Source: Escherichia virus TH40. From it: 64,000 nucleotides of DNA. Shown piece after piece: positions 7,190 through 63,768 of the stretch. The first letter of the stretch is position 1. Each line of letters opens with the position of its first letter. The position numbers and the translations under genes are program-made. The notes under the pieces were generated by a model. It was given only the letters and a program-made list of their open reading frames with translations. It did not search any database and had not been told where the DNA came from. The stretch lies in sequence record MT446411.1; one strand, written 5' to 3'.

Positions 7190-7478
7190 ATTTTTTCCAG
7201 TCACTAATTAATCGCACATCCTGGTCATACGTCAGGAGGCTACGAGTTATAATACCCTTACATGGTCCAGAAATAAATTCCAGAGTAAAGTAAGGAACCA
7301 ACTTCATCAAGCGAATACTCGGAGCAGTGCAACGAAATCTGGACCCAATAAAAGGTCCAGACAAAAACACATACTCAAAGAAATTAGCTTTATTAAAGAT
7401 TTCAAAATTCTTTACGAAATCCTCAGACCTAACCTTTGGAATAAAATAGATTTGGTCAAAAAGCTCTTCATGGGTCAT
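7182..7478 (-). CDS. hypothetical protein
   Basis: 98-aa ORF. Confidence 0.4.
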   Translation of the reverse strand: MTHEELFDQIYFIPKVRSEDFVKNFEIFNKANFFEYVFLSGPFIGSRFRCTAPSIRLMKLVPYFTLEFISGPCKGIITRSLLTYDQDVRLISDWKKYV

Positions 7479-8023
7479 TATTGCATTCCAATCACAAAAA
7501 ATTGAGGACGAACTGTTTCACCCGTTTTAAAACAATGAGCATGACAGCAGTGTTGTACAGTTTTCATATGGATATCGTAAATCTTGTCCATATCAGGAGC
7601 TTTAATAGGTTCATCAATTATATACAATACGCGTGAAAGTGCAAGGCCACGGAATTTAGAACCTTCATTACCGATAAAGCTACGTAATGAATCATGGAAA
7701 AGCCGGTAACGAATATCTTCCGCGCTAAAACGAATAAAATCATTTTTGATAGAATCGGATGAAATTCTTGCATAAGCCGAGGTATTAGACAGGACAATTA
7801 CTGTACCTCCGTCATAAATCCAGTTAGCGGCAAAATTAGTTACTGCAGTAGATTTACCTGATTGTCGCCCGCCATCCATACGGAGTGTGCAGTATTCTTT
7901 GAGCAAGACTTCCATTGGAGGAATATAACAATCGGTCTTACAAAGTTCTTCTATTCGAGCATCAGAATGGTGGGTAAAAGCATTCATCAGGGATAGATAA
8001 GGTCCAGTTAAAAAAGTTCTCAT
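7478..8023 (-). CDS. P-loop NTPase-like hypothetical protein
   Basis: 181 aa; Walker-A-like GGRQSGKST and Walker-B-like LYIIDEP. Confidence 0.5.
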   Translation of the reverse strand: MRTFLTGPYLSLMNAFTHHSDARIEELCKTDCYIPPMEVLLKEYCTLRMDGGRQSGKSTAVTNFAANWIYDGGTVIVLSNTSAYARISSDSIKNDFIRFSAEDIRYRLFHDSLRSFIGNEGSKFRGLALSRVLYIIDEPIKAPDMDKIYDIHMKTVQHCCHAHCFKTGETVRPQFFVIGMQ

Positions 8024-8110
8024 ATTGTTTCTCTTAAGGTTTTGGGGCCATTCCTTGGCACATTAATTCGTCCATGTATCCGAATGTAAACCCCTTACCG
8101 CACTCGGGCT
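8024..8110 (-). promoter_or_regulatory. putative early promoter
   Basis: minus-strand GTTTAC -35-like, about 17 nt, ATTAAT -10-like, then AAGAG SD and ATG. Confidence 0.3.
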
Positions 8111-8187
8111 CGACCTTATTACAGGTAGGGAAAGGTCCATCACTCAGAGGACACGACGTTCATGAGGAGAGGGTCGGTTTGCCTTTA

Positions 8188-8487
8188 TTAAAAAGAACCA
8201 GAGCCTTTAATTGTGTTCTGGCGACCTTTATTTTCGAATTCAGAATGGTCGATTTCGTATGCTTGTGCTACGCCAAAGGCCTTTTTAACTTTAGCTAAAG
8301 AACCTTTAGTTGTAACAATATTAAAAGTATTGCCTTTGGTAAAATCAACCAAATCCACTTGCACCCCTTGTTTACCAAGGCTTGCTACAATAGCATCAAC
8401 ATATTGTTGGTCTAAATTGCCTTGAACCCCAATTTGAAATGCTTTAGGAACTTTGGCTTCTGTGATAAATTCTTGATATGTTTTCAT
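8188..8487 (-). CDS. internal-protein-like head protein with capsid-targeting sequence (CTS)
   Basis: N-terminus MKTYQEFITE matches T4 IPII/IPIII CTS MKTYQEFIAE, with I-x-E prohead-protease cleavage motif. Confidence 0.7.
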   Translation of the reverse strand: MKTYQEFITEAKVPKAFQIGVQGNLDQQYVDAIVASLGKQGVQVDLVDFTKGNTFNIVTTKGSLAKVKKAFGVAQAYEIDHSEFENKGRQNTIKGSGSF

Positions 8488-8500
8488 ATTGTTTCTTTAA

Positions 8501-8815
8501 TCAAGCTTTAGGGAAATCGCGCAAAAATGCATCATAAAGTTTATTACCAATGCGACGAAATGCTTTTGCTGCATGAACGTTATCTGGGTTTGCAATTTTA
8601 ATCTGCATTACATGACTACCAGCCCATGATTTAGCTTCGTCATAATAACCTTTAATTTCTTTAATAGTCTTGCGTTTTCCACCAGGACCATCAACAGTAA
8701 TTTTCCACGAACCAGTGCTTGTTTCACTTGGTGGGGTTAACTGTTCAATCCAGACATAACCACCTTCAACACGTTGTTGAGTAGATTCAGTAATAAATTC
8801 TTGATAAGTTTTCAT
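8501..8815 (-). CDS. internal-protein-like head protein with CTS
   Basis: ATG at 8815 gives MKTYQEFITEST...; track start 8854 is an upstream extension. Confidence 0.7.
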   Translation of the reverse strand: MKTYQEFITESTQQRVEGGYVWIEQLTPPSETSTGSWKITVDGPGGKRKTIKEIKGYYDEAKSWAGSHVMQIKIANPDNVHAAKAFRRIGNKLYDAFLRDFPKA

Positions 8816-8863
8816 TTTATATTCCATTGTTTGGTTGATAAAATCATTATACAACCTTTTTAG

Positions 8864-9280
8864 TTAAGCGTACACAGCTTTCCCATAGTATTTGTACCAG
8901 GTAGGCTTTTGAGAAATTTTCTCATTCAGTCTGGCTTGACTGATTTCAATTGACCAGATTGATGGTTGATAATCATTCTTCCATTCATCAGGAATATCAT
9001 TTAAATCTTGGGTAGAAATATCTTTTATATTAAACCCTCGCTTTAAACATTCAGCAATAAGTTCTTGATGACGGTTTTTAAGGAACAAAAGCTTATCATA
9101 AAAGAAGGTGACATGACCAGTCCCTAAAAGAAAAGATGATGGGATTTTAAAGTCAGACACCTTTTTACCATTTTGTACATGCTTACGAACAGCACCAAAC
9201 ACGCGAGGAAGCTCACGATATTCAGCCATAAGGTGTTGGTCAGCAAGTTCAGATACCAGGGTTAAATTAATGCGAGTCAT
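8864..9280 (-). CDS. denV: endonuclease V (pyrimidine-dimer DNA glycosylase)
   Basis: 138 aa; [35 protein letters not shown]... near-identical to T4 DenV. Confidence 0.92.
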
Positions 9281-9322
9281 GTTTGTTCTCCGTAGTTGAT
9301 AGGGTCATTATAACCCTATCGT
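9281..9322 (-). promoter_or_regulatory. early-promoter-like cassette
   Basis: minus-strand gataGGGTTATAATGACCCtatcaactacGGAGaacaaacATG; TATAAT in loop of inverted repeat. Confidence 0.4.
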
Positions 9323-9335
9323 TTGGAGATGTAAA

Positions 9336-9824
9336 CTAATAAGCGTCAAAAGTTCCAGTACGGAAAGTTTCAATAACTCGTTTGGCCCGGTTCGGAGTCT
9401 GGACTTTATACCATCTTGAGTCCGCCAGTTCCTTAGCAGCAGCTTCCCATGATTTAGCCTTGAGCAATCGCATACCCTTAGGAAAACCAGCAACACCAGC
9501 TACACCCATTTGGAATACCATATTAATGAGTGCGCAACGACGAACTTCATCCAGTACATCATAAACAGGTTTTAAGACAGGATGTTTCAAGATTCCAGAT
9601 TTAGCTTTTTCGACCGAACGATTAAACAATGTTTCGGCTTCGTGCTGGGTTATACGGCCATTACAGACGCGACCCATGAGCTTATCGAGCTCGGCACGAG
9701 CAACATCTTTCGATGGGTTCTTAGTTATCAGTTGTCCGATACCAATGGTCCAATAACCTTCGGTATCTTTATACAAATCCAACTTACAACCTTCATCTAT
9801 GCGTAACATTTCGAATATATTCAT
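9336..9824 (-). CDS. e: lysozyme (endolysin, T4 e type)
   Basis: 162 aa; [12 protein letters not shown]...[13 protein letters not shown]...[15 protein letters not shown] matches T4 lysozyme including catalytic E11/D20/T26 context. Confidence 0.95.
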
Positions 9825-9850
9825 AATACCCCCTTATATAGGGGTATTTA

Positions 9851-10312
9851 TTATCCGAAAATTTGAGTCAAAACCTTATACATCGATTTACCCATTACGT
9901 ATTGCCATTGACTTGGTTTAATCAGAGCAAATGCATCAAACTCTGGGACCGAACTACCATCCGGGAAGGTATGATATGCGGAGCATTTACTATGTCTGAA
10001 TTGCTCATGCTCGACCGGAACCGTGTACAAAAACAGGTGAAGGTTTTTATTATCTGAATAACGAAACTCGCCTAGGTCTTTTAAGAATGCCGGGTCATAC
10101 TTGGTAAAACCTGTTTCTTCTTCACATTCACGCATAGCTGCTTCAATCAGGGATTCACCGGCTTCAACATGACCCTTAGGGATATCCCATTTATGCGCAG
10201 GCATACCCGGTTTGCGAGAACCAGTCACGCGCCCCATGAATAACTCTTTATCTTCAGTCATGAAAATAATACCAGCAGATAATTCTTTCGCCGCGTTTTT
10301 CTTACTCATCAT
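9851..10312 (-). CDS. nudE: Nudix hydrolase
   Basis: ATG at 10312; Nudix box GHVEAGESLIEAAMRECEEETG; position after e as in T4. Confidence 0.8.
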   Translation of the reverse strand: MMSKKNAAKELSAGIIFMTEDKELFMGRVTGSRKPGMPAHKWDIPKGHVEAGESLIEAAMRECEEETGFTKYDPAFLKDLGEFRYSDNKNLHLFLYTVPVEHEQFRHSKCSAYHTFPDGSSVPEFDAFALIKPSQWQYVMGKSMYKVLTQIFG

Positions 10313-17252: not shown

Positions 17253-17678
17253 TTATTTTTGAGCTTTGCGGAAGTTAGAAGCATAAGACTGAACAACAGT
17301 CTTTTTGATATCATGGGTAGTAACCAGAACATCAATCAGAGCGCGGCGAGCTGCATTATCATTCATATCAATTTCTGCAAATGCCTGGAAGCAAATGTCA
17401 CGGGCGTTACCAGATTTGGACTGGATTTTTTCTTCTTTAACTTCTTCAATTGGGAATTCAATCATTTCAGCTTGGATTAATTCAATGATGGACTCTTTTG
17501 ACTGTTTGGTGTTTACCTTCAGTTCAGAATTAAGGGACTTAGCGATGGCAACAATCTGGGTTGAAGTCAGATGGATAAGGGCATCTTCACGAATGCAGAT
17601 TTCACATACTTCGTCAGCAACCATTTTGTTAGTGATGCGGGTAACAGAAAATGCAGAGGTCAGGGTCAGAAAGTTCAT
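17253..17678 (-). CDS. hypothetical protein, paralog of 16738..17169
   Basis: 141 aa; C-terminal ...NAARRALIDVLV...VVQSYASNFRKAQK. Confidence 0.5.
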   Translation of the reverse strand: MNFLTLTSAFSVTRITNKMVADEVCEICIREDALIHLTSTQIVAIAKSLNSELKVNTKQSKESIIELIQAEMIEFPIEEVKEEKIQSKSGNARDICFQAFAEIDMNDNAARRALIDVLVTTHDIKKTVVQSYASNFRKAQK

Positions 17679-17745
17679 TTTATTTCTCCAAAGTTTTTGT
17701 GATTCAGTGTGTAACTCAGTATGGAATCATTATGCACCCGGTCAA
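17679..17745 (-). promoter_or_regulatory. early promoter cassette
   Basis: minus-strand GTGTACA, 17 nt spacer, CATAATgattccatactgagtta...GGAGaaataaaATG. Confidence 0.4.
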
Positions 17746-17805
17746 TTCGGATGTACACTACTTTTTGAAGAAATATTAAAAATAAACCCGCCGGAGCGGG
17801 TTTGA

Positions 17806-18360
17806 TTAGTTCTTATAAAAACGGAAGGGATTGATATGAAAGGCTAACATAGCTTTCGGGATAGGACGGGACAGAAGACTTTTTAGCTTCCAACCACAAT
17901 ACACGCGCAGATAAAAGGTGATTCCACCAACTTTAAGATAAGGTACGGAAGCGAACACGCCCCATGCATTATCATTCCACATCCAGAGCCAGCCATGGTG
18001 AGCTTTATCCGGGGAGCCCGATTCAACATCAGGATTACCTTTATAATGGAATTTAGAATCACAATCGCGGCCCAGCTTATGATAAGCAAAATTGTAGGCT
18101 TTGTTTCGCCAGAGCCAGGCCACTCGCTGGAAGTAAACGCCTAACGGCCATTTTCTGATTTTTTCCCAGCGTTTAACATGACCACGGTCGCCATCAATTG
18201 GGTTGTCGTATGTCATCATCCAGTCAAATCCAAACGGAAGCTTACCAGTCTTTTTGTTATGGAACGGCACTACAAATGGTGTAAGGATAACAGCCAGAAT
18301 CATGGAGATAAAATCCAGTGGCACTAACAGAATCCAGCTTAGATATTTTAAAAGTTTCAT
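17806..18360 (-). CDS. hypothetical protein with N-terminal transmembrane segment, late-promoter driven
   Basis: 184 aa; N-terminal ILLVPLDFISMILAVILTPFVV; TATAAATA about 27 nt upstream on minus strand. Confidence 0.55.
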   Translation of the reverse strand: MKLLKYLSWILLVPLDFISMILAVILTPFVVPFHNKKTGKLPFGFDWMMTYDNPIDGDRGHVKRWEKIRKWPLGVYFQRVAWLWRNKAYNFAYHKLGRDCDSKFHYKGNPDVESGSPDKAHHGWLWMWNDNAWGVFASVPYLKVGGITFYLRVYCGWKLKSLLSRPIPKAMLAFHINPFRFYKN

Positions 18361-18386
18361 AAATTTCCTTAGTTATGGGTACGTTA

Positions 18387-18394
18387 TATTTATA
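18387..18394 (-). promoter_or_regulatory. T4-type late promoter motif TATAAATA
   Basis: exact TATAAATA on minus strand (plus tatttata) immediately after terminator hairpin and before ATG 18360. Confidence 0.5.
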
Positions 18395-18396
18395 AA

Positions 18397-18425
18397 AAAG
18401 CCCCAACCTTTCGGAAGGGGCTATA
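18397..18425 (-). terminator. intrinsic terminator
   Basis: minus-strand GCCCCttccgaaaggttGGGGC followed by TTTTTT. Confidence 0.55.
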
Positions 18426-18459
18426 CCTTGTCGGGGTTCCACCTGCAAGGCAAGTGTTC

Positions 18460-18843
18460 TTATCCGCGGGCGAATGCCATTGCAGCGCGTTCGTTGGCAC
18501 GGTCAGTGATGTTCAAGAATTTATCACGAGCGATTTCGATTGGAGCGCCAACCCAGTCAGCGGCTCCATTACCTGGAGATTGTTTAGGACGAACCATATA
18601 AGTTGAAACTTTGGAACCAGCTAGTTTAGCACCAGGTGCAGCGGCATTCTTAACGTCTTTAGCTTTGATACCAAAACCAGTTACAATGCCCCAAGAAACA
18701 CCATTAACTGGTTTCTTGAACATAACACGGTCGCCAATTGAAACCCCAGCTTTTTCTGGAGCTACTAAAGAAAATTTACCGGCTTCAGTCAGTACGGATT
18801 CGGTGATGGTATTGCGATTTAAAAATTCTGCATATGTAAGCAT
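18460..18843 (-). CDS. candidate internal protein with degenerate CTS, late-promoter driven
   Basis: 127 aa; N-terminus MLTYAEFLNRNTITE resembles CTS MKTYQEFIAE and carries an I-T-E cleavage motif; TATAAATA upstream. Confidence 0.5.
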   Translation of the reverse strand: MLTYAEFLNRNTITESVLTEAGKFSLVAPEKAGVSIGDRVMFKKPVNGVSWGIVTGFGIKAKDVKNAAAPGAKLAGSKVSTYMVRPKQSPGNGAADWVGAPIEIARDKFLNITDRANERAAMAFARG

Positions 18844-18874
18844 TTTGTTTTTCCATTATTAGGGTTGTTGTTAA

Positions 18875-18882
18875 TATTTATA
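18875..18882 (-). promoter_or_regulatory. T4-type late promoter motif TATAAATA
   Basis: minus-strand ggaaTATAAATAttaac about 32 nt upstream of ATG 18843. Confidence 0.5.
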
Positions 18883-18892
18883 TTCCATAGTA

Positions 18893-18945
18893 CCGGATGC
18901 ACCACCCGCTCGGATTTCTCATACTACCGGGCGCACCGCCCGCTC
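18893..18945 (-). repeat. tandem direct repeat (two ~24-nt GC-rich units, each a short hairpin)
   Basis: plus taccggatgcaccacccgctcgg ... taccgggcgcaccgcccgctctgg separated by 11 nt. Confidence 0.6.
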
Positions 18946-19084
18946 TGGAAAAACTCCGTAAAAGGTGCGCCGTTTCAGCTGTGATATAAGGGGCCATTAA
19001 CAAAACATAAAGATTTATTAATGTCAGTCCTTAAACAGGGAACTTCAGTCCGACGACTTACCGGTAGCGACCCGGTTTCTTGTT

Positions 19085-19160
19085 TGGTCGAGACAGTAGG
19101 AATCGAACCTACGACCCAGGACTTAGAAGGTCCTTGCTCTTCCTTCTGAGCTATGCCTCG
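19085..19160 (-). tRNA. tRNA-Arg (anticodon UCU)
   Basis: 76-nt cloverleaf folded by hand: acceptor CGAGGCA/TGTCTCG, D-arm GCTC-AGAAGGAA-GAGC, anticodon stem AGGAC/GTCCT with loop CTTCTAA, T-arm GTAGG-TTCGATT-CCTAC, encoded CCA. Confidence 0.8.
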
Positions 19161-19293
19161 TGCTTGTTCATAGCGGGGTGGACTCGAACCACCAATATTA
19201 AGTCACTCATGCTCCAAGCATGCAGGGCACTTACCCCGGACGGAATCGAACCGCATCTACAATACCTATCGCCATGATAATTTAAAATAAGTT
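19161..19293 (-). ncRNA. unresolved tRNA-like / small stable RNA region
   Basis: two T-arm-like motifs (GGTTCGATTCC, GGTGGTTCGAGTCCACC) but no canonical cloverleaf could be folded by hand. Confidence 0.25.
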
Positions 19294-19367
19294 TGGTGGC
19301 CCTGGGTGGAATCGAACCACCATCCAGCGATTATGAGTCGCTCGCTTGACCGTCCAGCTACAGGGCC
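19294..19367 (-). tRNA. tRNA with CAU anticodon (Met, or Ile if lysidine-modified as in T4)
   Basis: 74-nt cloverleaf: acceptor GGCCCTG/CAGGGCC perfect 7 bp, anticodon stem AGCGA/TCGCT with loop CTCATAA, T-arm GGTGG-TTCGATT-CCACC, encoded CCA. Confidence 0.75.
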
Positions 19368-19445
19368 TTAATTCTATTATGAAAGGCTCTTTGAGGGAAG
19401 AACCTTTGGTAATAGAGGGTACTTATTAATAATAACGCGTTTTTA

Positions 19446-19922
19446 TTAAAGCATATCAAGTGCTTTAACGTTCAGGATTTGGATTTCTTCTTCGATGATG
19501 TATAATTTCACCCACGAAACTACGCGTATAAAATCACTATCATATTCCACTGGCTCGCCCAGCAATTCCTGGAGAGAACACAATAATTCAAATTCCTGGT
19601 CATTGTCACCTTCAACCAGATTTTCAATACAAAGTGTTTTGTTAATGAATTCAGGAGTTAATTGACCAGATTTTACACCAGATTCAATGTGTGCGATAAT
19701 CAAGTCTTTAACTATGTCCCATTCTGAATTACCACATTTATTGCGGTTATTACAATGAGAGCCTTGAAAAAGTTCCAGGATATATTTGTACTGCTGGATT
19801 TCTTGTTCTTCTACACCAAATATTGTCTGGGTTTTATAGTTGTCACCATCATTTTCCAAGGTTTCAATTTCAATCACATAACCTTTAGGGATGGTCTGAC
19901 CAAATTTAATATTCATAATCAA
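19446..19922 (-). CDS. hypothetical acidic protein
   Basis: 158-aa ORF. Confidence 0.5.
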   Translation of the reverse strand: MIMNIKFGQTIPKGYVIEIETLENDGDNYKTQTIFGVEEQEIQQYKYILELFQGSHCNNRNKCGNSEWDIVKDLIIAHIESGVKSGQLTPEFINKTLCIENLVEGDNDQEFELLCSLQELLGEPVEYDSDFIRVVSWVKLYIIEEEIQILNVKALDML

Positions 19923-20299
19923 CCTTCATCAACAATAGTATGGGTATTAGCATTAACAATCTGCCACCAGTCAAAACGGTTAGAACCATATTGAGGCTTA
20001 TTCTCGTTTTCTTTAATGATATCACGCAGTTCATCTTCGGTAGCGGCTTTTGCGATTAGGTCTGCATAACCGCCACGGGGATAATAGTTATCGCCAGCAA
20101 AGAGTAAAAAGTTTGTTTTGATATTCTTGAATTCTTCAAGAGTAATAACCGTTCCAGATGGTTGAACAATATCTACGTAACTATATCCTAATTTCTGGGC
20201 ATTATCTACCGCTTCAAGCAGGGTGTCATGTGCCCACCCAATTTGACATTCTGGTTTTTCAGATGGATTTGCCTGATAATCTGCATACACTTTATACAT
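19919..20299 (-). CDS. hypothetical protein
   Basis: ATG at 20299 with SD; track start 20347 is an upstream extension. Confidence 0.5.
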   Translation of the reverse strand: MYKVYADYQANPSEKPECQIGWAHDTLLEAVDNAQKLGYSYVDIVQPSGTVITLEEFKNIKTNFLLFAGDNYYPRGGYADLIAKAATEDELRDIIKENENKPQYGSNRFDWWQIVNANTHTIVDEG

Positions 20300-20300
20300 T

Positions 20301-20486
20301 TTACTCACCTTTAGAGATTTTATCCATAACGAAAGAGATTGAACCAATTAAGAATGCAACTACTAAAGAGATTATATTCTCAGAAGTTGAAAGCATATTC
20401 AACATAAAGCCAGCAAACATGCTAAAACCAAAAGCGGTAACAGCAACAAGGGCAGTAACATTTCTAATTAATTCGCAACGTTTCAT
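20301..20486 (-). CDS. hypothetical small membrane protein
   Basis: 61 aa, two hydrophobic helices; GAGGAG SD and promoter cassette upstream. Confidence 0.5.
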   Translation of the reverse strand: MKRCELIRNVTALVAVTAFGFSMFAGFMLNMLSTSENIISLVVAFLIGSISFVMDKISKGE

Positions 20487-20530
20487 TTTATTCTCCTCAG
20501 TAGTTAATGGGATAATTATGCACTATCCCA
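20487..20530 (-). promoter_or_regulatory. early promoter cassette
   Basis: minus-strand GGGATAgtgCATAATTATCCCattaactactGAGGAGaataaaATG. Confidence 0.45.
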
Positions 20531-20543
20531 TTCAAAAGTACAC

Positions 20544-20777
20544 TTATTTTTTACGGAAAATTGATTTATACTGTTTAGCCCATTTCTCGATAACTTCTGC
20601 CGGACCCTGGATAACAAAATAGTCCCCAAACTCTTCACCGCCGAGCTGACCGTAATTATCTAAGGCGTCGCGGAGAGTTCCATAAGGCATTTCGCCCATT
20701 TTATCTTTCTTGCCGGTGTAAATGAATTGCACTTTAACATCAGCAGTTTCATTAATAAATTCTTGATAAGTTTTCAT
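20544..20777 (-). CDS. internal-protein-like small protein with CTS
   Basis: 77 aa; N-terminus MKTYQEFINE (CTS with I-N-E cleavage motif). Confidence 0.7.
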   Translation of the reverse strand: MKTYQEFINETADVKVQFIYTGKKDKMGEMPYGTLRDALDNYGQLGGEEFGDYFVIQGPAEVIEKWAKQYKSIFRKK

Positions 20778-20832
20778 GTTGTCTCCAGTAGTTGATGGGA
20801 TAATTATACTGCAGTTATCCCAGCGCGTATAC
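20778..20832 (-). promoter_or_regulatory. early promoter cassette
   Basis: minus-strand GTATAC...GGGATAactgcagTATAATTATCCCatcaactactGGAGAcaacATG. Confidence 0.45.
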
Positions 20833-21075
20833 TTATTTTAAGTCTTCCAGACGTTTTTTCATCTTGGTACCATTCTTAGCAATTTCGCCTGCATCAGAAC
20901 AAAGAGCAAGGAGAGCTTTAACTTTACCCTGGTCGCCTTTAAAAGATGATGCATCTACAGAATCAGCAAGTTCTTTGATGCGAGCAAACAGACGCTCTGC
21001 TTCAGCAAGGGCTTGACCAAGTTTAACTTCCATACCATGAGAAGATTCATTAATAAATGTTTGATAAGTTTTCAT
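20833..21075 (-). CDS. internal-protein-like small protein with CTS
   Basis: 80 aa; N-terminus MKTYQTFINE. Confidence 0.7.
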   Translation of the reverse strand: MKTYQTFINESSHGMEVKLGQALAEAERLFARIKELADSVDASSFKGDQGKVKALLALCSDAGEIAKNGTKMKKRLEDLK

Positions 21076-21083
21076 TTGAAATC

Positions 21084-21356
21084 CTATTTTAGATAAATTG
21101 CGTATTTTTTATACCCAGCTGTCTCATGGCGGAGACCCTTGTCATTGGCAAAACGCTCAATGTTATTAATTTGGTTCTGGTCAAGTTCTGAAATGTCAAA
21201 CGCGAAAAAGTTGCGTTTGTTTCCAATTGTTATATGGTCAGTTAAGTCAATGCTATACAGGTGATTGATATTGTCAATCATAGCTTTGACTGCTTTACTA
21301 ATTTTTACTTCTTCATTCAGTTGGGACTCGTTGAAAAGTTCATTAAAAGTTTTCAT
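21084..21356 (-). CDS. internal-protein-like small protein with CTS-like N-terminus
   Basis: 90 aa; N-terminus MKTFNELFNE. Confidence 0.6.
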   Translation of the reverse strand: MKTFNELFNESQLNEEVKISKAVKAMIDNINHLYSIDLTDHITIGNKRNFFAFDISELDQNQINNIERFANDKGLRHETAGYKKYAIYLK

Positions 21357-21364
21357 AAGAAACC

Positions 21365-21697
21365 TTATTTATACAGTTTAGCTAGTTCTTTACGTCCGCG
21401 AGCAGACATAATGAATTGTTCATCACCAATTTTGAAATAAGCCATGCCGCCGTCAACAGCGATACCAATTTCTTTAGTACCTTCTTTACCTTTCCACTTG
21501 CCACCAGATTTTAGGACAGCTTCAACTGCAGCTTTGGAATATTTGGATGTTTGAAAACGTTCATTACCAATCTGAAAGAAAACACCATCTGCATTTTTGG
21601 ATAAACCAAATTTCAGAGAGCCTTCACTATCATCAATTGATTTAGTCTCATTGATGGCGGATTCGGCTAAAAACTCATTATAAGTCTTGATGTTCAT
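21365..21697 (-). CDS. internal-protein-like protein with CTS-like N-terminus
   Basis: ATG at 21697 with GGAG SD gives MNIKTYNEFLAES... Confidence 0.6.
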   Translation of the reverse strand: MNIKTYNEFLAESAINETKSIDDSEGSLKFGLSKNADGVFFQIGNERFQTSKYSKAAVEAVLKSGGKWKGKEGTKEIGIAVDGGMAYFKIGDEQFIMSARGRKELAKLYK

Positions 21698-21750
21698 TTT
21701 AACTCCGTTTGTTCGTTGGTGTAGGAACATAATACTGTGCCTACACTCAT
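21698..21750 (-). promoter_or_regulatory. early promoter cassette
   Basis: minus-strand GTGTAGGcacagTATTATgttCCTACACcaacgaacaaacGGAGttaaaATG. Confidence 0.4.
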
Positions 21751-21757
21751 TTGTACA

Positions 21758-22448
<691 letters not shown>

Positions 22449-51193: not shown

Positions 51194-51621
51194 TGTTTAT
51201 TATCCCTGATGATTACGAATTAACTCTTGAAAACATTGAAAGTGTTTCCGAAGAAGCTCAGGGACAATTTGATTCATTATCTGAAGCCTTAGAAAAAGAC
51301 GATATAAATATTATTGTAGAAAACATGTTTGCAGCCGGTGAATATGAAAAAGCAACGGTTATCGGCGCGCTGAATGAAGGTGTTCAGCTTAACGAATTTA
51401 TCGTTAAACATGTATCGTCTCGCGGCGAGTTAACCCGCACAAAAGACCTAGCTACTCGTAAGCGTAATGCTTTCCAAACAACTGGTCTTTCTAAAGCTAA
51501 ACGTCGTCAAATTGCCCGTCTGGCTACTAAAACAAAAAGAGCAAACCCATCTACGCAAATCAGAGCAGAGCGCAAGCGCAAAAAAGCTCGAGCTAAGCGT
51601 AAAGCATTCGGACTTGATTAA
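51193..51621 (+). CDS. 68: prohead core protein gp68
   Basis: 142 aa, position as in T4. Confidence 0.8.
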
Positions 51622-52259
51622 TGGAACAGAAACCAGAGTTACTAATTGAACACTGGGGTCAACCGGGCGAAATTAAAGATGGTGTACCGATGTTGGAATC
51701 TCATGACGGTTCCAGCAGCGGTTTAAAGCCAGGACTTTATATTGAAGGTATTTTCCTACAAGCTGAAGTTGTTAACCGTAATAAACGACTTTATCCTAAA
51801 CATATTTTGGAAAAAGCCGTTGCTGATTATATGACAGAACAGGTTGCTACTAAACAAGCTTTAGGAGAATTAAATCATCCGCCCCGTGCTAACGTCGACC
51901 CTATGCAAGCCGCTATTATTATTGAAGATATGTGGTGGAAAGGTAATGATGTATATGGCCGAGCGCGTATTATCGAAGGCGACCATGGCCCAGGTGATAA
52001 ACTTGCTGCAAATATAAGAGCAGGTTGGATTCCAGGTGTATCTAGTCGTGGACTTGGTTCCTTGACTAAATCAGCAAAAGGTTATAGCATCGTTAATGAA
52101 GGTTTTAAATTGACGGTTGGAGTAGATGCAGTATGGGGGCCAAGTGCTCCGGACGCTTGGGTCAAACCAAAGCAGATTACAGAATCACAAACGGCAGTTG
52201 CCGATACCAGTGCCGATGACGCCTTTATGGCTCTCGCAGAGGCTTTAAAGACGTTATAA
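51621..52259 (+). CDS. 21: prohead core protease gp21
   Basis: 212 aa, same as T4 gp21. Confidence 0.9.
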   Translation: MEQKPELLIEHWGQPGEIKDGVPMLESHDGSSSGLKPGLYIEGIFLQAEVVNRNKRLYPKHILEKAVADYMTEQVATKQALGELNHPPRANVDPMQAAIIIEDMWWKGNDVYGRARIIEGDHGPGDKLAANIRAGWIPGVSSRGLGSLTKSAKGYSIVNEGFKLTVGVDAVWGPSAPDAWVKPKQITESQTAVADTSADDAFMALAEALKTL

Positions 52260-52291: not shown

Positions 52292-53110
52292 ATGCTTAAA
52301 GAACAACTCATTTCTGAAGCTCAGAATATCGATGCTTCCGTTGCTCTCGATAGTATTTTCGAATCAGTTAATTTGTCCCCGGAAGCGAAAGCTACCTTCG
52401 GCACTGTATTCGAAGCTACCGTCAAGCAACACGCCATCAAACTGGCAGAATCTCACATTCACGCCATCGCTGAAAAAGCTGAAGAAGAAGTCGAAAAGAA
52501 TAAAGAAGAAGCCGACGAAAAAGCAGAGAAAAAACTGAAAGAATCTGCAGCTAAATTCCTGGACCACGTTGCTAAAGAATGGCTCGCTGAAAATAAACTG
52601 GCTGTCGACCGTGGCATTAAAGCTGACCTGTTCGAATCCATGTTCACCGGCATGAAAGAACTGTTCGTTGAGCACAACGTTGTTGTTCCAGAAGAATCTG
52701 TCGATGTTGTTGCAGAAATGCAGGAAGAACTGGCTGAACAGAAAGAAGAAACCGCTAATCTGTTCGAAGAAGTTGCTAAGCGTGATGCTTATATCAATTA
52801 TGTCCAACGTGAAGTTGCGTTGACTGAAGCGACTAAAGACCTGACTGAATCTCAAAAAGAAAAAGTTGGTTCTCTGGTAGAAGGCATGGAATACTCTGAT
52901 GCATTCGGTACCAAAATTGGCGTTATCGTTGAAATGGTTAAAGGTCAGGTAGAACCCACCGACAAACCAATCACCGAAGCCGCTATAAATAAAAATGTAG
53001 ACGATGCTGCGGCACTGAATTACATTTCAGAAGCAGTTGAAGAAAAAGGCGCCAAGCCTACCCTGTCCTTCGCGGACTTGTCTGCTCTCGCAGCATCACG
53101 AATTTCTTAA
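52292..53110 (+). CDS. 22: prohead core scaffold protein gp22
   Basis: 272 aa, acidic coiled-coil. Confidence 0.88.
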   Translation: MLKEQLISEAQNIDASVALDSIFESVNLSPEAKATFGTVFEATVKQHAIKLAESHIHAIAEKAEEEVEKNKEEADEKAEKKLKESAAKFLDHVAKEWLAENKLAVDRGIKADLFESMFTGMKELFVEHNVVVPEESVDVVAEMQEELAEQKEETANLFEEVAKRDAYINYVQREVALTEATKDLTESQKEKVGSLVEGMEYSDAFGTKIGVIVEMVKGQVEPTDKPITEAAINKNVDDAAALNYISEAVEEKGAKPTLSFADLSALAASRIS

Positions 53111-55134: not shown

Positions 55135-56415
55135 ATGGCAAAGATTAACAAATTACTGCGCGAGTCAACTATTACTACCAGCAACTCCTTGGGCCGCCCG
55201 AATCTTGTTGCTTTGACCCGCGCTACGACTAAATTGATTTACCGCGATATCATCGCTGAACAACGTACTAACCAACCTGTTGCTGCACTGTATGGTGTTA
55301 AATATCTTACTCCTGATAATGAATTCAGTTTCCAGACGGGCGCTACTTATGGAGGCGAAGTCGGTTCTAAAGACCGCACAACTATTCCAGAATTAACTAC
55401 AGCCACTCAGCCTGTGGCTAAAGGCGAATATGTAAAATACCAAAATATCGTTTACAAAGCTCTGGTTGATAATCCATTTGCATCGACCACAGAAACAGTG
55501 TTATCTGATGTTCTGCAAGAAGGTCTTATTGCATCGACTATTCGCCTTGTTCCTGATGCCGCACACACTGAAAAATTCGAAGCCGGTGATGTTGAAATTA
55601 GCAATGCTGTATTCCAGGTTAATAAATGGAATGCTCCGGTTAAAACACGTAAATTGAAAACTGCATTAACTGTTGAACTTGCTCAGGATATGGAAGCAAA
55701 TGGTTTTAACGCTCCTGCTTTCTTGGAAGACCTGCTTGCCACTATTATGGCAGATGAAATTAACAAAGATGTTCTTCAGTCTCTTATTACCGTTTCCAAG
55801 CGTTATAAAGTAACTGGCGTTTCTGACAATGGCACCATCGATTTAACATATGATGCAGCTCCAGAAGGCGCACGTAAACTGTATGAACTGGTTTGCGAAA
55901 TGAACTCCGAAATTCAGAAAACTACATCTTATTCCGGTACCTTTGTTGTTGCCTCTAGCCGTGTTGCTGCTATGTTGGCCGGTTCTGGTTGGTTGAAACA
56001 CAGACCAGAAGACGAACAGTGGCTCCCCGAAACAGCGTACGGTTATTTGATTAATGGCCTCCCTGTATTCTGTGATGTTAACAGTCCATTGGATTATGTA
56101 ACTGTTGGTGTTAAAGAAAATTACGGCGGAAACGAAGTCGTAGGCTCAATTTTCTATGCTCCTTATACCGAAGGCCTGGACTTGGATGATGAAGAGCACG
56201 TTGGTGCGTTTAAGGTCATTGTGGACCCAGACAGCTTGCAGCCATCTATCTCTCTGATGGTTCGTTACGCACTTTCAGCTAACCCGTACACCGTTGCTAA
56301 AGACGATAAAGAAGCTCGTATTATCGATGCAACCAATATGGATTTAATGGCCGGTCAGAGCAATATGTCTTATCTGCTCGGTGTTAAACTTCCGCCAATC
56401 ATTTATGAGGCGTAA
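55135..56415 (+). CDS. 24: capsid vertex protein gp24
   Basis: 426 aa; MAKINKLLRESTITTSNSLGRPNLVALTRATTKLIY close to T4 gp24. Confidence 0.92.
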   Translation: MAKINKLLRESTITTSNSLGRPNLVALTRATTKLIYRDIIAEQRTNQPVAALYGVKYLTPDNEFSFQTGATYGGEVGSKDRTTIPELTTATQPVAKGEYVKYQNIVYKALVDNPFASTTETVLSDVLQEGLIASTIRLVPDAAHTEKFEAGDVEISNAVFQVNKWNAPVKTRKLKTALTVELAQDMEANGFNAPAFLEDLLATIMADEINKDVLQSLITVSKRYKVTGVSDNGTIDLTYDAAPEGARKLYELVCEMNSEIQKTTSYSGTFVVASSRVAAMLAGSGWLKHRPEDEQWLPETAYGYLINGLPVFCDVNSPLDYVTVGVKENYGGNEVVGSIFYAPYTEGLDLDDEEHVGAFKVIVDPDSLQPSISLMVRYALSANPYTVAKDDKEARIIDATNMDLMAGQSNMSYLLGVKLPPIIYEA

Positions 56416-57699
56416 ATGCAAAAGATTAATGCACTAATTCACGAATCAACATTAACGGCGGCCAACCAGGTCGCCCGTCCTAATTTGCTTTCTTATACTC
56501 AGGCTACGAATAAACGAATTTTTAAAGCACTCGTGGCCGAACAGAAAACTACCCAGCCTGTTGCAGCCCTGTATGGTGTTCGTGTTCTGAACCCAGATGA
56601 TAAAATGACTTATCTCGGTGGAGCAACATTTGCAGGTCAGATTGGTATGTTCGAGCGTAAGAATATTCCAGAATTTACAAACAAAGACGAAGCTTATGCA
56701 GTCGGCGATATGTTCCAGTTTGAAAGTGTTGTGTTCAAAGTTTTGGAAGCATCCCCATTCGCCGGTACACTCGAAACTGATTTAGGTGAAGTTATTTCTG
56801 AAGCCATTGCTGCTGGGCATATAAGAATGATGTCAGATGCTGCTTTCACTGATAAATTTGAAAAGGGGCATCCTGAAATTGCTGAAGCTGGTTTTCGTAT
56901 CGATAAATGGCAGACTGAAGTTAAATCCAGAAAGTTGAAAACTTCTTTAACTGTCGAGCTTGCCCAGGACCTGGAAGCAAACGGTTTTGATGCAACAGAC
57001 TTCATCGATAATATTCTCGGCATTCAAATGGCAGAGGAAATTAATAAGGATGTATTGCAATCCCTTATTACTGTTAGTTCCCGCTTCAAGGTGCAAGGTG
57101 TTTCGGAAAAAGGTGTATTGAATCTTACTGACCCGAAATATGATAATGCCCAGGACCGCGCACGAACCCTGTATTATTATATGTGTGAAATGAATTCTGC
57201 AGTTCAACGTCAGACTTCGTTTGCTGGTACATATGCAGTTGCTTCTTCCCGTTGTGCAGCTATTTTAGCCGCTTCTGGCTGGGTTGAGAAAAAGGAAGAC
57301 CAGGATGAATTGGCCTATGGTGTTCTGAAGAACGGTTTGCCTCTTTACGCTGATATGAATAGTCCATGCGATTATGTTATTGTTGGTGTAAATGCGGATA
57401 TGGGTGAAGGTCAGACGGTCGCATCTTTATATTATGCGCCTTATACGGAAGGACTTAGCGAAGTTGATGATGAGGGTGATACCTCGGTTGGGGAATTCAA
57501 GGTTATTGTTGACCCCGAAAGCTTACAACCTACGGTTGCACTGTTAGCTCGTTATGCTTTGACTGCGAACCCTTACACCGTTGCTAAAGATGATAAAGAA
57601 GCTCGCCTTATTGATGGAGCTGATATGGATAAGATGGCTAACCAAAGTCAATTGAGTTCTTATCTTGGTGTTAAACTTCCACCGCTGGAAAAAGAATAA
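56416..57699 (+). CDS. capsid vertex protein gp24 paralog (second tandem copy)
   Basis: 427 aa; MQKINALIHESTLTAANQVARPNLLSYTQATNKRIF... collinear with upstream gp24 but diverged. Confidence 0.85.
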   Translation: MQKINALIHESTLTAANQVARPNLLSYTQATNKRIFKALVAEQKTTQPVAALYGVRVLNPDDKMTYLGGATFAGQIGMFERKNIPEFTNKDEAYAVGDMFQFESVVFKVLEASPFAGTLETDLGEVISEAIAAGHIRMMSDAAFTDKFEKGHPEIAEAGFRIDKWQTEVKSRKLKTSLTVELAQDLEANGFDATDFIDNILGIQMAEEINKDVLQSLITVSSRFKVQGVSEKGVLNLTDPKYDNAQDRARTLYYYMCEMNSAVQRQTSFAGTYAVASSRCAAILAASGWVEKKEDQDELAYGVLKNGLPLYADMNSPCDYVIVGVNADMGEGQTVASLYYAPYTEGLSEVDDEGDTSVGEFKVIVDPESLQPTVALLARYALTANPYTVAKDDKEARLIDGADMDKMANQSQLSSYLGVKLPPLEKE

Positions 57700-61295: not shown

Positions 61296-61313
61296 GATGA
61301 ACCTCGGTTAGTG

Positions 61314-61321
61314 TATAAATA
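61314..61321 (+). promoter_or_regulatory. T4-type late promoter TATAAATA
   Basis: exact motif 29 nt upstream of uvsW ATG. Confidence 0.6.
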
Positions 61322-61349
61322 TAGATATATTTATTACCTTGGAATCATC

Positions 61350-62849
61350 ATGGATATTAAAATCAACTTTCTAAATTTTAGTCACGTGCATGTTGAATGT
61401 GAAGATGGAATCTTCTACGAACTCCGTGATTACTTCAGCTTCGAAGCTGAAAACTATCGCTTCAATCCAAAATTCAAGCAGGGAGTTTGGGACGGACGAA
61501 TCCGCCTCCTGGATTACAATCGTAAATTACCATACGGTTTGGTTAATCAAATTAAAAAGTTCGCTGACCAGTTTGGCTATTCATTCTGGATTGACCCACA
61601 AATCACCGAGAAAGAAGAAATCTCTCGCGAAGAATTCGACAAATGGGTCGAGTCAAAAGAAATCTATTCAGGCAATACTAAGATAACGCCCCATTGGTAT
61701 CAATCTGACGCCGTATATGATGGTCTGGTCAACAGAAGAAAGATTCTGAACTTACCTACGTCTGCAGGTAAAAGTCTCATCCAGGCGCTTCTGGCGCGAT
61801 ATTATCTCGAGAACTATGAAGGCAAGGTACTTATCCTTGTTCCTACAACCGCGCTTGTTGACCAGATGATTAATGACTTTGTTGATTATCGTCTGTTCCC
61901 TCGTGAAGCTTGTCTGGGTATTCGTTCTGGTACCAAACGCGATTCTGATGCGATGATTTATGTATCGACTTATCAGACGGCTGTAAAACAACCTAAAGAA
62001 TGGTTTGAACAGTTTGGTCAGTTTATGAATGACGAATGTCATATGGCTACAGGTAAATCAATTTCGACGGTTATCGAAGGCCTTACGAATTGTATGTTTA
62101 AATTTGGTTTGTCCGGTTCACTCCGTGACGGCAAAGCCAACCTTATGCAATATATGGGTCTGTTTGGTGATATCTTTAAACCAGTATCAACATCTAAATT
62201 GATGGAAGATGGTCAGGTCACTGACCTTAAAATAAATAGTATTTTCCTTCGTTACCCTGATGAATTTACCGTTAAAATGAAAGGTAAAACTTATCAGGAT
62301 GAAATTAAGGTAATTACAAAAGCTACACGCCGAAATAAATGGGTAACAAATCTTGCTCTCAAGCTTGCTAAAAAAGATGAAAACGTCTTTTTGATGTTTA
62401 AGAATATCGAGCACGGTAAATCGATGTTTGAAATGCTTAAGGAAGCTGGTCATGAGAAAGTGTATTATGTTTCCGGGGAAGTTGATACCGAAACTCGTAA
62501 TGCATTAAAGGTCATGGCAGAGAATGGAAAGGGAATTATCGTTGTAGCTTCATATGGCGTATTCTCGACGGGTATTTCCGTTAAAAACCTCCATCATATT
62601 ATTTTCGCCCACCCGGTCAAGTCAAAGGTAATTGTACTCCAGACAATTGGTCGTGTGCTTCGAAAACATGAATCCAAATCACAAGCAAACGTTTTTGATA
62701 TCGTGGATGATATGGGGGTTAAACCTAAATCGGTAAATGCTAAAAAGAAATATGTTCATTTGAACTTTGCCCTAAAACATGGTCTTGAACGTATACAACG
62801 ATATGCTGATGAACGTTTTAACTATGTAATTAAACAGGTGGAAATTTGA
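61350..62849 (+). CDS. uvsW: UvsW ATP-dependent DNA/RNA helicase
   Basis: From ATG 61350: MDIKINFLNFSHVHVECEDGIFYELRDYF..., DExH helicase motifs (LPTSAGKS, MNDECH) match T4 UvsW. Confidence 0.92.
   Translation: MDIKINFLNFSHVHVECEDGIFYELRDYFSFEAENYRFNPKFKQGVWDGRIRLLDYNRKLPYGLVNQIKKFADQFGYSFWIDPQITEKEEISREEFDKWVESKEIYSGNTKITPHWYQSDAVYDGLVNRRKILNLPTSAGKSLIQALLARYYLENYEGKVLILVPTTALVDQMINDFVDYRLFPREACLGIRSGTKRDSDAMIYVSTYQTAVKQPKEWFEQFGQFMNDECHMATGKSISTVIEGLTNCMFKFGLSGSLRDGKANLMQYMGLFGDIFKPVSTSKLMEDGQVTDLKINSIFLRYPDEFTVKMKGKTYQDEIKVITKATRRNKWVTNLALKLAKKDENVFLMFKNIEHGKSMFEMLKEAGHEKVYYVSGEVDTETRNALKVMAENGKGIIVVASYGVFSTGISVKNLHHIIFAHPVKSKVIVLQTIGRVLRKHESKSQANVFDIVDDMGVKPKSVNAKKKYVHLNFALKHGLERIQRYADERFNYVIKQVEI
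62827..62845 (+). repeat. 19-bp direct repeat, copy 1 (3' end of uvsW)
   Basis: taattaaacaggtggaaat, identical to 63519..63537. Confidence 0.8.
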
Positions 62850-63541
62850 ATTATCAAAAAATATATGATGATTTAATTGGGAGTCGAAAGGCTTCCAAAC
62901 CGATTGGATATACAGAATCTCACCATATCATTCCAGAATGTATGGGTGGGCCTGATACACAAGAAAACAGAGTCAACCTTACTCCGGAAGAACATTTCAT
63001 TGCACATAAATTATTGGCCAAAATTCATCCCAATCATTACGGTCTTATAAAGGCCGTCATTGCTATGGGTATGAGCTCTCGGACACACCAACGACAATTT
63101 AATAAATCGTATGGATGGGAGCGTAGACAAATGTCAGTTCTTCAAACGGGTGAAGGTAATCCTTTTTATGGTAAGCACCATACTGAAGAACATAAAGAAT
63201 ATATGAGTCAATTATTGAAGGGTCGCAAAATAACTTGGGCTGATAAAATATCCGTGACAAAGAAAGCGAATCCGTATAAATACTCTCAAGCACAATGTCA
63301 AGCTATATCAGAAAGAAATAAAGGTGAAGGCAATTGGATGTATGGTAAATCACATACACCAGAAGCATCGAAGAAAATTTCAGATAAAGCGAAAGAACGT
63401 TATAAAGACCCGTCTAAAAATCCGGCAGCTAAAAAGGTTGTTATAGGTGGAGTTGAATATGGTTCAATGAAACAAGCTTCAGAAGCTACGGGGCTTTCTA
63501 AATATAAAATTAGAAATTTAATTAAACAGGTGGAAATATAA
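62846..63541 (+). mobile_element. freestanding HNH-family homing endonuclease gene with NUMOD-like repeats
   Basis: 231 aa; HNH core ESHHIIPECMGG...ENRVNLTPEEHFIAH, NUMOD-like GNPFYGKHHTEEHK and GNWMYGKSHTPEASKK, helix-turn-helix-like C-terminus; TTG start overlapping uvsW stop; inserted between uvsW and uvsW.1. Confidence 0.65.
63519..63537 (+). repeat. 19-bp direct repeat, copy 2 (3' end of HNH gene)
   Basis: taattaaacaggtggaaat; both uvsW and the HNH ORF end with residues ...IKQVEI. Confidence 0.8.
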
Positions 63542-63768
63542 TGAAATCCTTCGAAGAAATTATGTACGAAGCATCAATTGAAGGCTTTATGGCTAAGATT
63601 GGTTCCTGCCAGACCATAGACGGTCTGAAGGAGTTGGAAAGCTATTATAAAAAACGCAGTAAAGAAGCTGAACTAAAAGATTCCGATGATATCAGTGTTC
63701 GTGATGCTCTTGCCGGTAAACGCGCCGAGCTTGAGGATATGGACGATGATGAAGACGAAGATTTCTAA
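63541..63768 (+). CDS. uvsW.1: UvsW.1-like small acidic protein
   Basis: 75 aa beginning MKSFEE, ATG overlapping upstream stop (TAATG). Confidence 0.7.
   Translation: MKSFEEIMYEASIEGFMAKIGSCQTIDGLKELESYYKKRSKEAELKDSDDISVRDALAGKRAELEDMDDDEDEDF

Follow-up and report, generated by a model that had tools for sequence, protein, structure and literature searches.

Seven genes with capsid targeting leaders at three loci

The stretch of DNA analyzed here (hereinafter, the window) comprises 64,000 nucleotides (nt) from the genome of Escherichia virus TH40 (MT446411.1), which belongs to the Gapriverviruses, a group of T4-type coliphages (myoviruses). The window contains seven small genes, denoted A to G, that encode products starting with the T4 capsid targeting sequence (CTS), the leader of the phage internal proteins (Ips), or with a variant of it (Table 1). 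When the regions 7400-9900 and 17700-22300 were compared with GenBank phages using megablast, the best relatives were TH15 (98% identity), VR7 (97%), VR26, SP18, VR25, and EAWsc9. The minus strand carries all genes in approximately the first 25 kb of the window, and their order, namely, vs.8, A and B, denV, e, and nudE, then tRNA-Arg and tRNA-Met, and then D, E, F, and G followed by 57B, 57A, and gene 1, parallels that in T4. Two of the tagged genes (B and A) lie between denV and vs.8, four (G, F, E, and D) occupy the ipI hot-spot, between 57B and trna.4, and one, gene C, is located in the slot of the stable RNA gene rnaC. Six of the seven are not novel, as they either have been named before or belong to classified Ip families. 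What is new is gene C, a representative of an unannotated CTS-tagged family that is absent from PHROGs and Pfam, has a long leader resembling that of T4 IPI, and resides in the rnaC slot with its own late promoter.

In the T4 CTS, residues 4 (Y or F) and 7 (F) are the targeting determinants, and residues 8 and 10 are the processing residues (PMC9026906). The leaders of all seven proteins resemble MKTYQEFIAE and carry the determinants at residues 4 (Y/F) and 7 (F/L), shifted by two residues in G: A, B, and D start with MKTYQEFI, E with MKTYQTFI, F with MKTFNELF, G with MN-IKTYNEFL, and C with MLTYAEFL. Each leader spans approximately 10-19 residues and ends in an (I/L)xE tripeptide, that is, ITE at residue 10 (A and B), INE at 10 (D and E), LNE at 15 (F, with FNE at 10), LAE at 12 and INE at 17 (G), or ITE at 15 and LTE at 20 (C). 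When the 64 kb are translated in six frames, the pattern M.[TS][YF].[ET][FL] matches at six places, each of them the first codon of one of the genes A to F; shuffled sequence yields 0.54 matches, and none at the head of an open reading frame (ORF) of at least 60 codons. Because this pattern was devised after gene C had been seen, we also scored leaders with a position matrix that was trained without gene C. Among the 642 frames that start with Met and have at least 50 codons, gene C ranks sixth, at 11.7 bits, behind five other tagged genes, and the best unrelated start scores -0.4 bits; gene G is missing from this ranking because scoring starts at the initiating Met and its tag begins two residues later.

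Table 1. Tagged genes, elements flanking gene C, and key head assembly genes in the window (aa, amino acids).
Feature	Coordinates	Strand	Description
Gene A	8188..8487	-	Ip7-family internal head protein precursor, 99 aa; starts MKTYQEFITEAKV; leader MKTYQEFITE
Gene B	8501..8815	-	Ip10-family internal head protein precursor, 104 aa; starts MKTYQEFITESTQ; leader MKTYQEFITE
Terminator-like hairpin	18394..18422	-	AGCCCCTTCC-GAAA-GGTTGGGGCT with a T-run, on the 3' side of gene C; 80-84% identical to its equivalents in T4 and VR25
Gene C	18460..18843	-	Unannotated candidate internal protein, 127 aa; starts MLTYAEFLNRNTITESVLTE
Late promoter motif TATAAATA	18875..18882	-	Exact; 31 nt upstream of gene C ATG
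rnaD (species 2 stable RNA) homolog	18964..19080	-	85% identity to T4 rnaD; directly downstream of tRNA-Arg (19085-19160)
Gene D	20544..20777	-	Ip6-family internal protein precursor, 77 aa; MKTYQEFINE; phrog_8111, E 2.5e-51
Gene E	20833..21075	-	Internal head protein precursor, 80 aa; MKTYQTFINE; phrog_3499, E 2.3e-41
Gene F	21084..21356	-	Ip9-family internal head protein precursor, 90 aa; MKTFNELFNE, leader MKTFNELFNESQLNE; phrog_7673, E 3.3e-56
Gene G	21365..21697	-	Protein of 110 aa with a CTS tag shifted by 2 residues; leader MNIKTYNEFLAE; phrog_3966, E 1.2e-33
gp21 prohead protease	51621..52259	+	Pfam Peptidase_S77, E 6e-102; 87% identity to T4 gp21
gp22 scaffolding core protein	52292..53110	+	Pfam T4_CASP, E 9e-91; 73% identity to T4 gp22

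Gene C defines a family with a conserved leader

The exact T4-type late promoter motif TATAAATA is found in 21 copies in the window, approximately four-fold more than the 5.3 expected, and all of these are co-oriented with the local genes. Among the tagged genes, only C and F are preceded by an exact copy (with the first base at -39 and -17 from the ATG, respectively). The leader of gene C consists of MLTYAEFLNRNTITE followed by SVLTE, with a gp21-type cleavage site at the end of each segment (I13-T14-E15 and L18-T19-E20), and retains T3, Y4, E6, and F7 of the CTS. The remaining, mature part of 107-112 residues is basic, with a computed isoelectric point (pI) of 10.1 for the 112-residue form produced by a cut after E15. 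In an AlphaFold2 model of medium confidence, residues 1-32 are disordered and are followed by a folded core that is predicted to be an SH3-like barrel with a C-terminal helix, that is, a basic domain of the SH3/KOW/Tudor type. A single-sequence AlphaFold prediction was unusable (mean predicted local distance difference test score 36). In a profile search of the PDB with gene C, the sole match, to a designed double-psi barrel via a GDxV hairpin motif, was non-significant (E 0.67) and was not used, and a Foldseek search against BFVD retrieved only the identical VR20 protein, listed as 'uncharacterized'.

Gene C has no match in PHROGs or Pfam. In a tblastn search, it was found in 15 of 50,697 phage records, all of them from Gapriverviruses and at least 99% identical, and in every one of the 15 records, the gene is either unannotated or labeled 'hypothetical protein'. 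Phages that carry C include VR20, UPEC01, UPEC07, EAWsc9, and DK-13. A full HMMER search of 1.84 billion representative proteins detected two distant homologs. One of these, P0003, consists of 202 residues, with 47% identity to C and the best-scoring stretch at C residues 27-120; its leader, MYTFKEFLVESELDLITE, scores 15.2 bits on the matrix. The other, P0004 (125 residues, 42% identity, best stretch at C residues 13-122), has the leader MKSFKEFMLSE, which scores 10.2 bits. In both cases, the best-scoring stretch lies mostly or wholly outside the leader. Both homologs come from T4-like metagenomic contigs and are syntenic with C: P0003 lies approximately 185 nt downstream of a tRNA gene, among the T4 families Phage_30_3, Y06R, and Y16K, and P0004 is located directly upstream of a homolog of the window gene 17253..17678. 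The linker between the leader and the core is not conserved in the family and, in P0003, contains an 80-residue insertion. Judging from these sequences, the conservation of the leader across the divergence of the C family is the strongest computational evidence that this leader is functional. The original prediction of a CTS-like gene behind an exact late motif at this position holds for both the promoter motif and the start of the protein, and the latter is strengthened by the CTS-like leaders of the two homologs.

Additional searches yielded no further distant homologs. A word-indexed search of 5.8 billion proteins with gene C recovered only its own cluster, and the same search with a leaderless family profile recovered the C cluster and P0004, which was part of the query profile. 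Scans of IMG/VR with protein patterns and with a degenerate DNA pattern of the core each found a single contig, with an identical gene C. A metagenome scan with a relaxed core pattern produced 22 stretches, one of which is a true relative, identical to C.

Gene C replaces rnaC

In T4 and VR25, the rnaD gene is followed by rnaC (species 1 RNA), with the VR25 copy being 97% identical to that of T4. The window retains rnaD, and no match to rnaC was found anywhere in it; besides the two tRNAs, no Rfam families were detected in the window. Comparison with VR25 places the breakpoints at approximately 18962 and 18459, between which the 146-nt rnaC segment of VR25 (1673-1818 of the compared stretch) is replaced by 504 nt, which consist of a unique stretch of approximately 80 nt together with the late promoter and gene C. 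The predicted RNA folding of the 83 nt between rnaD and the gene C promoter is no better than that of shuffled sequences (z -0.6). The hairpin downstream of gene C has its homolog behind rnaC in T4 and VR25 and was retained on the 3' side of C; a simple terminator scan missed this hairpin because of two internal mismatches. It overlaps the next copy of TATAAATA (18387-18394). The phages that carry C have lost rnaC, which shows this RNA to be dispensable in nature. The G+C content of gene C is 0.45, compared with 0.41 for the window and 0.36-0.37 for the other ip genes.

A second, independent insertion relative to VR25 spans positions 17782-18390 (approximately 610 nt). It carries a gene (17806..18360, minus strand; G+C content 0.43) that encodes a predicted membrane protein of 184 residues (Pfam DUF7338, phrog_2143), has its own exact TATAAATA at 18387-18394, and is annotated as 'amidase-6 domain-containing' in one relative.

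Predicted packaging, processing, and function

The window encodes both a T4-type prohead protease and a T4-type scaffolding core (Table 1), along with gp67, gp68, gp23 (85% identity to T4), gp24, and the protease inhibitor Inh. The processing sites of gp23 (GSFLTE/AEIGG, where the slash marks the cut) and gp24 (LLRE/S) are kept. With gp21, gp22, gp67, and gp68 present and these sites conserved, targeting and cleavage specificities like those of T4 are expected. As a separate observation, the window contains two tandem gp24-like vertex genes (55135..56415 and 56416..57699, plus strand), with 56% identity between their products, both of the Pfam Gp23 family and both with a gp24-type N-terminal site (LLRE/S and LIHE/S); T4 has a single gene 24.

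The explanation that best accounts for genes A to G, and one that we consider probable in its entirety, is that their products are CTS-tagged proteins that are packaged, processed by gp21, injected, and directed against host defenses. Under this scenario, which follows T4 biology with respect to docking, leader removal by gp21, and injection with the DNA (PMC9026906, PMC3012670), the proteins would be made during head assembly and docked on the gp22/gp67/gp68 scaffolding core through residues 4 (Y/F) and 7 (F/L) of the leader. After closure of the shell, gp21 would cut behind the (I/L)xE tripeptide that ends the leader, that is, after E10 in A, B, D, and E, and after E12 in G; F would be cut at E15 (LNE), unless the protease accepts FNE at E10, and C at E15 and/or E20. 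The small, mostly basic mature proteins would then stay inside the head and, together with the DNA, be injected into the cell, where each, most likely, would neutralize a particular first-line defense of the host, by analogy with T4 Ip1, Ip2, and Ip3. The strongest candidate targets would be variants of the GmrSD family of type IV restriction enzymes: each of the three T4 proteins blocks a distinct GmrSD variant (PMC12373910), and IPIII is needed for growth on ECOR17 (PMC9391042). The GmrSD link is by analogy; beyond the leader, A to G share no sequence with T4 Ip1-3.

Several points weigh against this scenario. Our literature search yielded neither virion proteomics nor N-terminal sequences for the Ips of any Gaprivervirus, and hence packaging and processing of A to G are predictions. 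The regions upstream of A, B, D, E, and G contain only one-mismatch variants of the late motif or sigma-70-like elements (gene B, for example, has no exact TATAAATA and is preceded, approximately 45 nt upstream, by the extended -10-like element TGTATAAT), so that the timing of their expression rests on analogy; T4 ipI, ipII, and ipIII likewise have no exact late motif immediately upstream. As for gene C, the conservation of the leader is based on few sequences because the family includes only three divergent members, and the leader deviates from the MKTYQEFIxE consensus at positions 2, 5, and 10.

This deviation bears on an alternative for gene C, under which it encodes an ordinary late accessory protein, such as a small intracellular nucleic acid-binding protein, that is not packaged and resembles CTS-tagged proteins fortuitously or vestigially. 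The leader is off consensus at the three positions, although leucine at position 2 is found in an accepted Ip, with Ip7 of VR7 and TH15 starting MLTYQEFITE; under the matrix trained without C, it still exceeds all unrelated starts in the window by 12 bits, and both distant homologs keep a CTS-like leader despite the unconserved linker. The processing residues at 8 and 10 are missing, and there is no (I/L)xE at 8-10, but ITE-15 and LTE-20 match known gp21 sites (PMC5694885), and T4 IPI shows the same architecture, with a long leader ending in ITE. The position of C outside both classical ip loci, the lack of a PHROG or Pfam family and of an Ip annotation in any record, and the SH3/KOW/Tudor-like basic domain, which suits intracellular DNA or RNA binding as well, would all fit an accessory protein, whereas the late promoter fits synthesis during head assembly. 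Taken together, these features make an unpackaged accessory role for gene C fairly unlikely. As to the more specific proposal that C founds an unrecognized family of T4-type injected internal proteins, with an IPI-style leader, an SH3-like domain, its own late promoter, and a third ip locus replacing rnaC, and represented in a subset of Gapriverviruses and two metagenomic phages, we see the chances as about even.

Another possibility is that the proteins are packaged but play mainly a structural or physical role, in neutralization of the DNA charge, head assembly, or DNA ejection, rather than in defense inhibition. The predicted mature forms, with masses of 7.5-11.7 kDa, are indeed basic (six of the seven, pI 8.3-10.1) or near neutral (D, 7.8); in T4, internal proteins, at approximately 1000 copies per head, contact DNA phosphates via lysines (PMC3012670), and head assembly is slower in IPIII mutants (PMC9026906). 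The basic charge and the IPIII assembly phenotype speak in favor of DNA coating or a structural role. However, the mature domains are unrelated, and the families are gained and lost between near-identical phages, with relatives holding different CTS gene sets at the same loci (cassette turnover); this pattern fits an arms race better than generic DNA coating by a polycation, and all three T4 Ips have specific GmrSD targets (PMC12373910). A mainly structural function is therefore, in our assessment, unlikely.

If the proteins are packaged and injected as proposed, they would belong to the class of phage products that enter the host cytoplasm first. Since the T4 Ips disarm GmrSD enzymes, each added leader-tagged family is a candidate anti-defense protein and a possible determinant of host range for therapeutic T4-like phages. 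Gene C, if injected, would be a candidate inhibitor of a host defense outside the range of the known Ips, and one that is directly testable.

The pair of tagged genes between denV and vs.8

Genes A and B both start with MKTYQEFITE at the positions given in the original prediction, on the minus strand, and these tags are real; as a find, however, the pair had been anticipated, being annotated as ip7 and ip10 in VR7. Gene A shows 98% identity to VR7 ip7 and 50% identity to ip7 of RB15 and T2 (97-99 residues), and matches phrog_2667, 'internal head protein' (E 3.6e-42), over profile positions 1-101 of 101; cleavage by gp21 after E10 is predicted to leave a mature form of 89 residues with a pI of 9.3. 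Gene B shows complete (100%) identity to VR7 ip10 and belongs to phrog_3966 (E 1.8e-32; profile positions 1-111 of 117), with a predicted mature form of 94 residues (pI 9.6). Both proteins are thus homologous over their full length to named Ips. The mechanical ORF of gene B begins farther upstream, with a TTG at 8854, and contains another ATG at 8827, but the ATG at 8815 is the only start with a GGAA Shine-Dalgarno-like element and a canonical leader, and VR7 annotates the same 315-nt gene. The gene A family is present in 283 phage records and the gene B family in 189. Gene B and gene G of the cassette, which fall in the same PHROG, are distant paralogs.

The suggestion that this pair sits in the ipII/ipIII position is only loosely right: the T4 order is e-ipIII-ipII-denV-vs.8, whereas the order in the window is e-denV-B-A-vs.8, so that denV precedes the pair here but follows the ip genes in T4. 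When A and B are aligned with T4 IPII and IPIII by BLASTP, the similarity ends at residues 10-18, that is, it covers the leader only, and neither BLASTP nor PHROG profiles reveal homology of the mature regions to IPII (phrog_7857) or IPIII (phrog_5341). These two T4 proteins and IPI (phrog_4363) touch the profiles of A and B only over positions 1-14 and 1-21. It is therefore highly improbable that A and B are diverged orthologs of IPII and IPIII in an ancestral locus, as the prediction had implied: although they share the general neighborhood (e, denV, and vs.8), leaders that are identical bar one residue, and, for gene A (99 residues), a size close to that of IPII (100 residues), the similarity stops at the leader, the PHROG families are distinct, denV lies between the two positions, and the spread of the Ip7 family (found in T2 and in RB15, the ip7 record of which is a separately deposited 1.4-kb fragment), together with the presence of the gene B paralog G in the ipI locus of the same window, points to mobile cassettes rather than vertical orthologs.

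The gene content of this locus varies among the relatives. In VR7 and SP18, ip10 and ip7 are separated by a third CTS gene; TH15 has no ip10; and phage 212 and UPEC07 lack ip10 and carry a different CTS gene (MKTYQEFLAE, phrog_8765) between e and denV. From the family assignments, the position, and these gene sets, we conclude that A and B are a known, annotated part of a variable Ip hot-spot and not a copy of ipII/ipIII. The third gene of VR7 and SP18 encodes a protein of 87 residues (MKTYQEFITES..., phrog_2667) that resembles RB69 ORF125c (VR7 ORF127c; VR7 stretch 2568-2873); in the window, this gene is missing, and B and A are separated by only 13 nt (8488-8500). The GC-rich 160-nt spacer on the 3' side of gene A (8020-8190) showed RNA folding no better than that of shuffled sequences (z -0.4).

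The D-G cassette and other genes

The four genes of the 20.5-21.7 kb cassette have close counterparts in relatives. Genes D and F are 97-98% identical to VR25 ip6 and ip9, respectively, with the first 24 residues identical, equal gene lengths, and the same location. The near-identical EAWsc9 counterpart of gene E (MKTYQTFITE) is annotated as 'internal head protein'. Gene G, the ATG of which (21697) is preceded by a GGAG Shine-Dalgarno element, shares 95% identity with a VR25 gene that carries no name; a gene of 333 nt is annotated at this position in both VR25 and EAWsc9. The assignment of G draws on its leader and its kinship with Ip10, given that phrog_3966 is filed under unknown function and that neither VR25 nor EAWsc9 labels the counterpart as an Ip.

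Several repeats are found in the cassette. The DNA that encodes the CTS forms a direct repeat of 29-43 nt, with 76-93% identity, at the starts of D, E, and F (20735-20777, 21033-21075, and 21328-21356), and could serve as a recombination site for the swapping of ip cassettes. Gene D is flanked on both sides by an intergenic repeat with 86% identity between the copies (20491-20519 and 20779-20807) that holds a GGGATAA...TTATCCC hairpin around a TATAAT-like hexamer. By eye, a similar layout of a hairpin and a -10 element is seen before gene G (approximately 21700-21745), and such a layout also precedes T4 ipI, ipII, and ipIII. Next to the cassette lies a homolog of gene 57B (21758..22213, minus strand), the counterpart of which in EAWsc9 is annotated as the anti-CBASS protein Acb1; by this annotation, a known anti-defense gene adjoins the ip cassette.

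At the far end of the window, the ORF 63541..63768 encodes a faintly CTS-like start (MKSFEEIMYE) and was rejected as a candidate: it is a helicase piece of the UvsW.1 type (phrog_1143), and its start has a leader matrix score of -0.9. Between this ORF and uvsW (61311..62849), there is a homing endonuclease-like gene (62846..63541, plus strand; phrog_655).

Comparison with known systems

Arbiol et al. reportedly described, in 2010, the promoter-early stem-loops (PeSLs), mobile regulatory cassettes of T4-type phages that were proposed to mediate gene shuffling. Resembling these, a hairpin with a -10-like TATAAT/TATTAT precedes gene D and, by eye, gene G, and an 86% identical copy follows D; this likeness was assessed by eye and by a single repeat comparison. 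Gene C differs from such cassettes in having a late promoter.

The tripeptides ITE and LTE of gene C are also those at which T4 Alt is processed (ITE-6 and LTE-619; PMC5694885). The two proteins are otherwise dissimilar: Alt, an ADP-ribosyltransferase of 70 kDa, has a propeptide of 6 residues, whereas C consists of 127 residues and has no enzyme signature.

With Ip5-Ip12 of the T-even phages (annotated in VR7, VR25, SP18, JS98, T2, and RB15), the likeness is direct, as A, B, D, F, and E match named or classified members; the differences are that the window lacks the third gene of VR7 and SP18 and that none of the named Ips corresponds to gene C. Already in 1994, at least 10 such proteins had been described in T-even phages (PMC12373910; PMC3012670, citing Repoila et al. 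1994), and T-even Ips share 'only a conserved CTS' (PMC3012670). Accordingly, the existence of many non-homologous proteins that share only the CTS and are encoded in polymorphic loci of T-even phages has been known since 1994. The count of seven candidates in the window, highlighted in the original prediction as exceeding the three of T4, is correct but is to be expected and unremarkable for this group.

The T4 IPs share with A to G the leader MKT(Y/F)xEF..., with targeting residues 4 and 7 and with 10-19 residues ending in (I/L)xE, as well as the small size and basic character of the proteins (by computation for the window, and as reported in PMC9026906 for T4) and the location of the genes near e/denV and in the 57B-tRNA region. 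They differ in that the mature parts show no similarity and fall in other PHROG families, in that A and B lie downstream of denV whereas the T4 genes are upstream, and in that there are seven genes in the window compared with three in T4, with gene C at a third locus, the rnaC slot. If it is an ip gene, as predicted, gene C shows that ip cassettes can land beyond the two classical hot-spots, here displacing rnaC. With IPI, in particular, gene C shares a long leader ending in ITE, which in IPI is MKTFKEFTSTTTPVSTITE, of 19 residues (PMC9026906). Gene C would add to IPI a second natural case in which the leader is long and the cleavage site displaced, and this pair helps define the requirements of the CTS.

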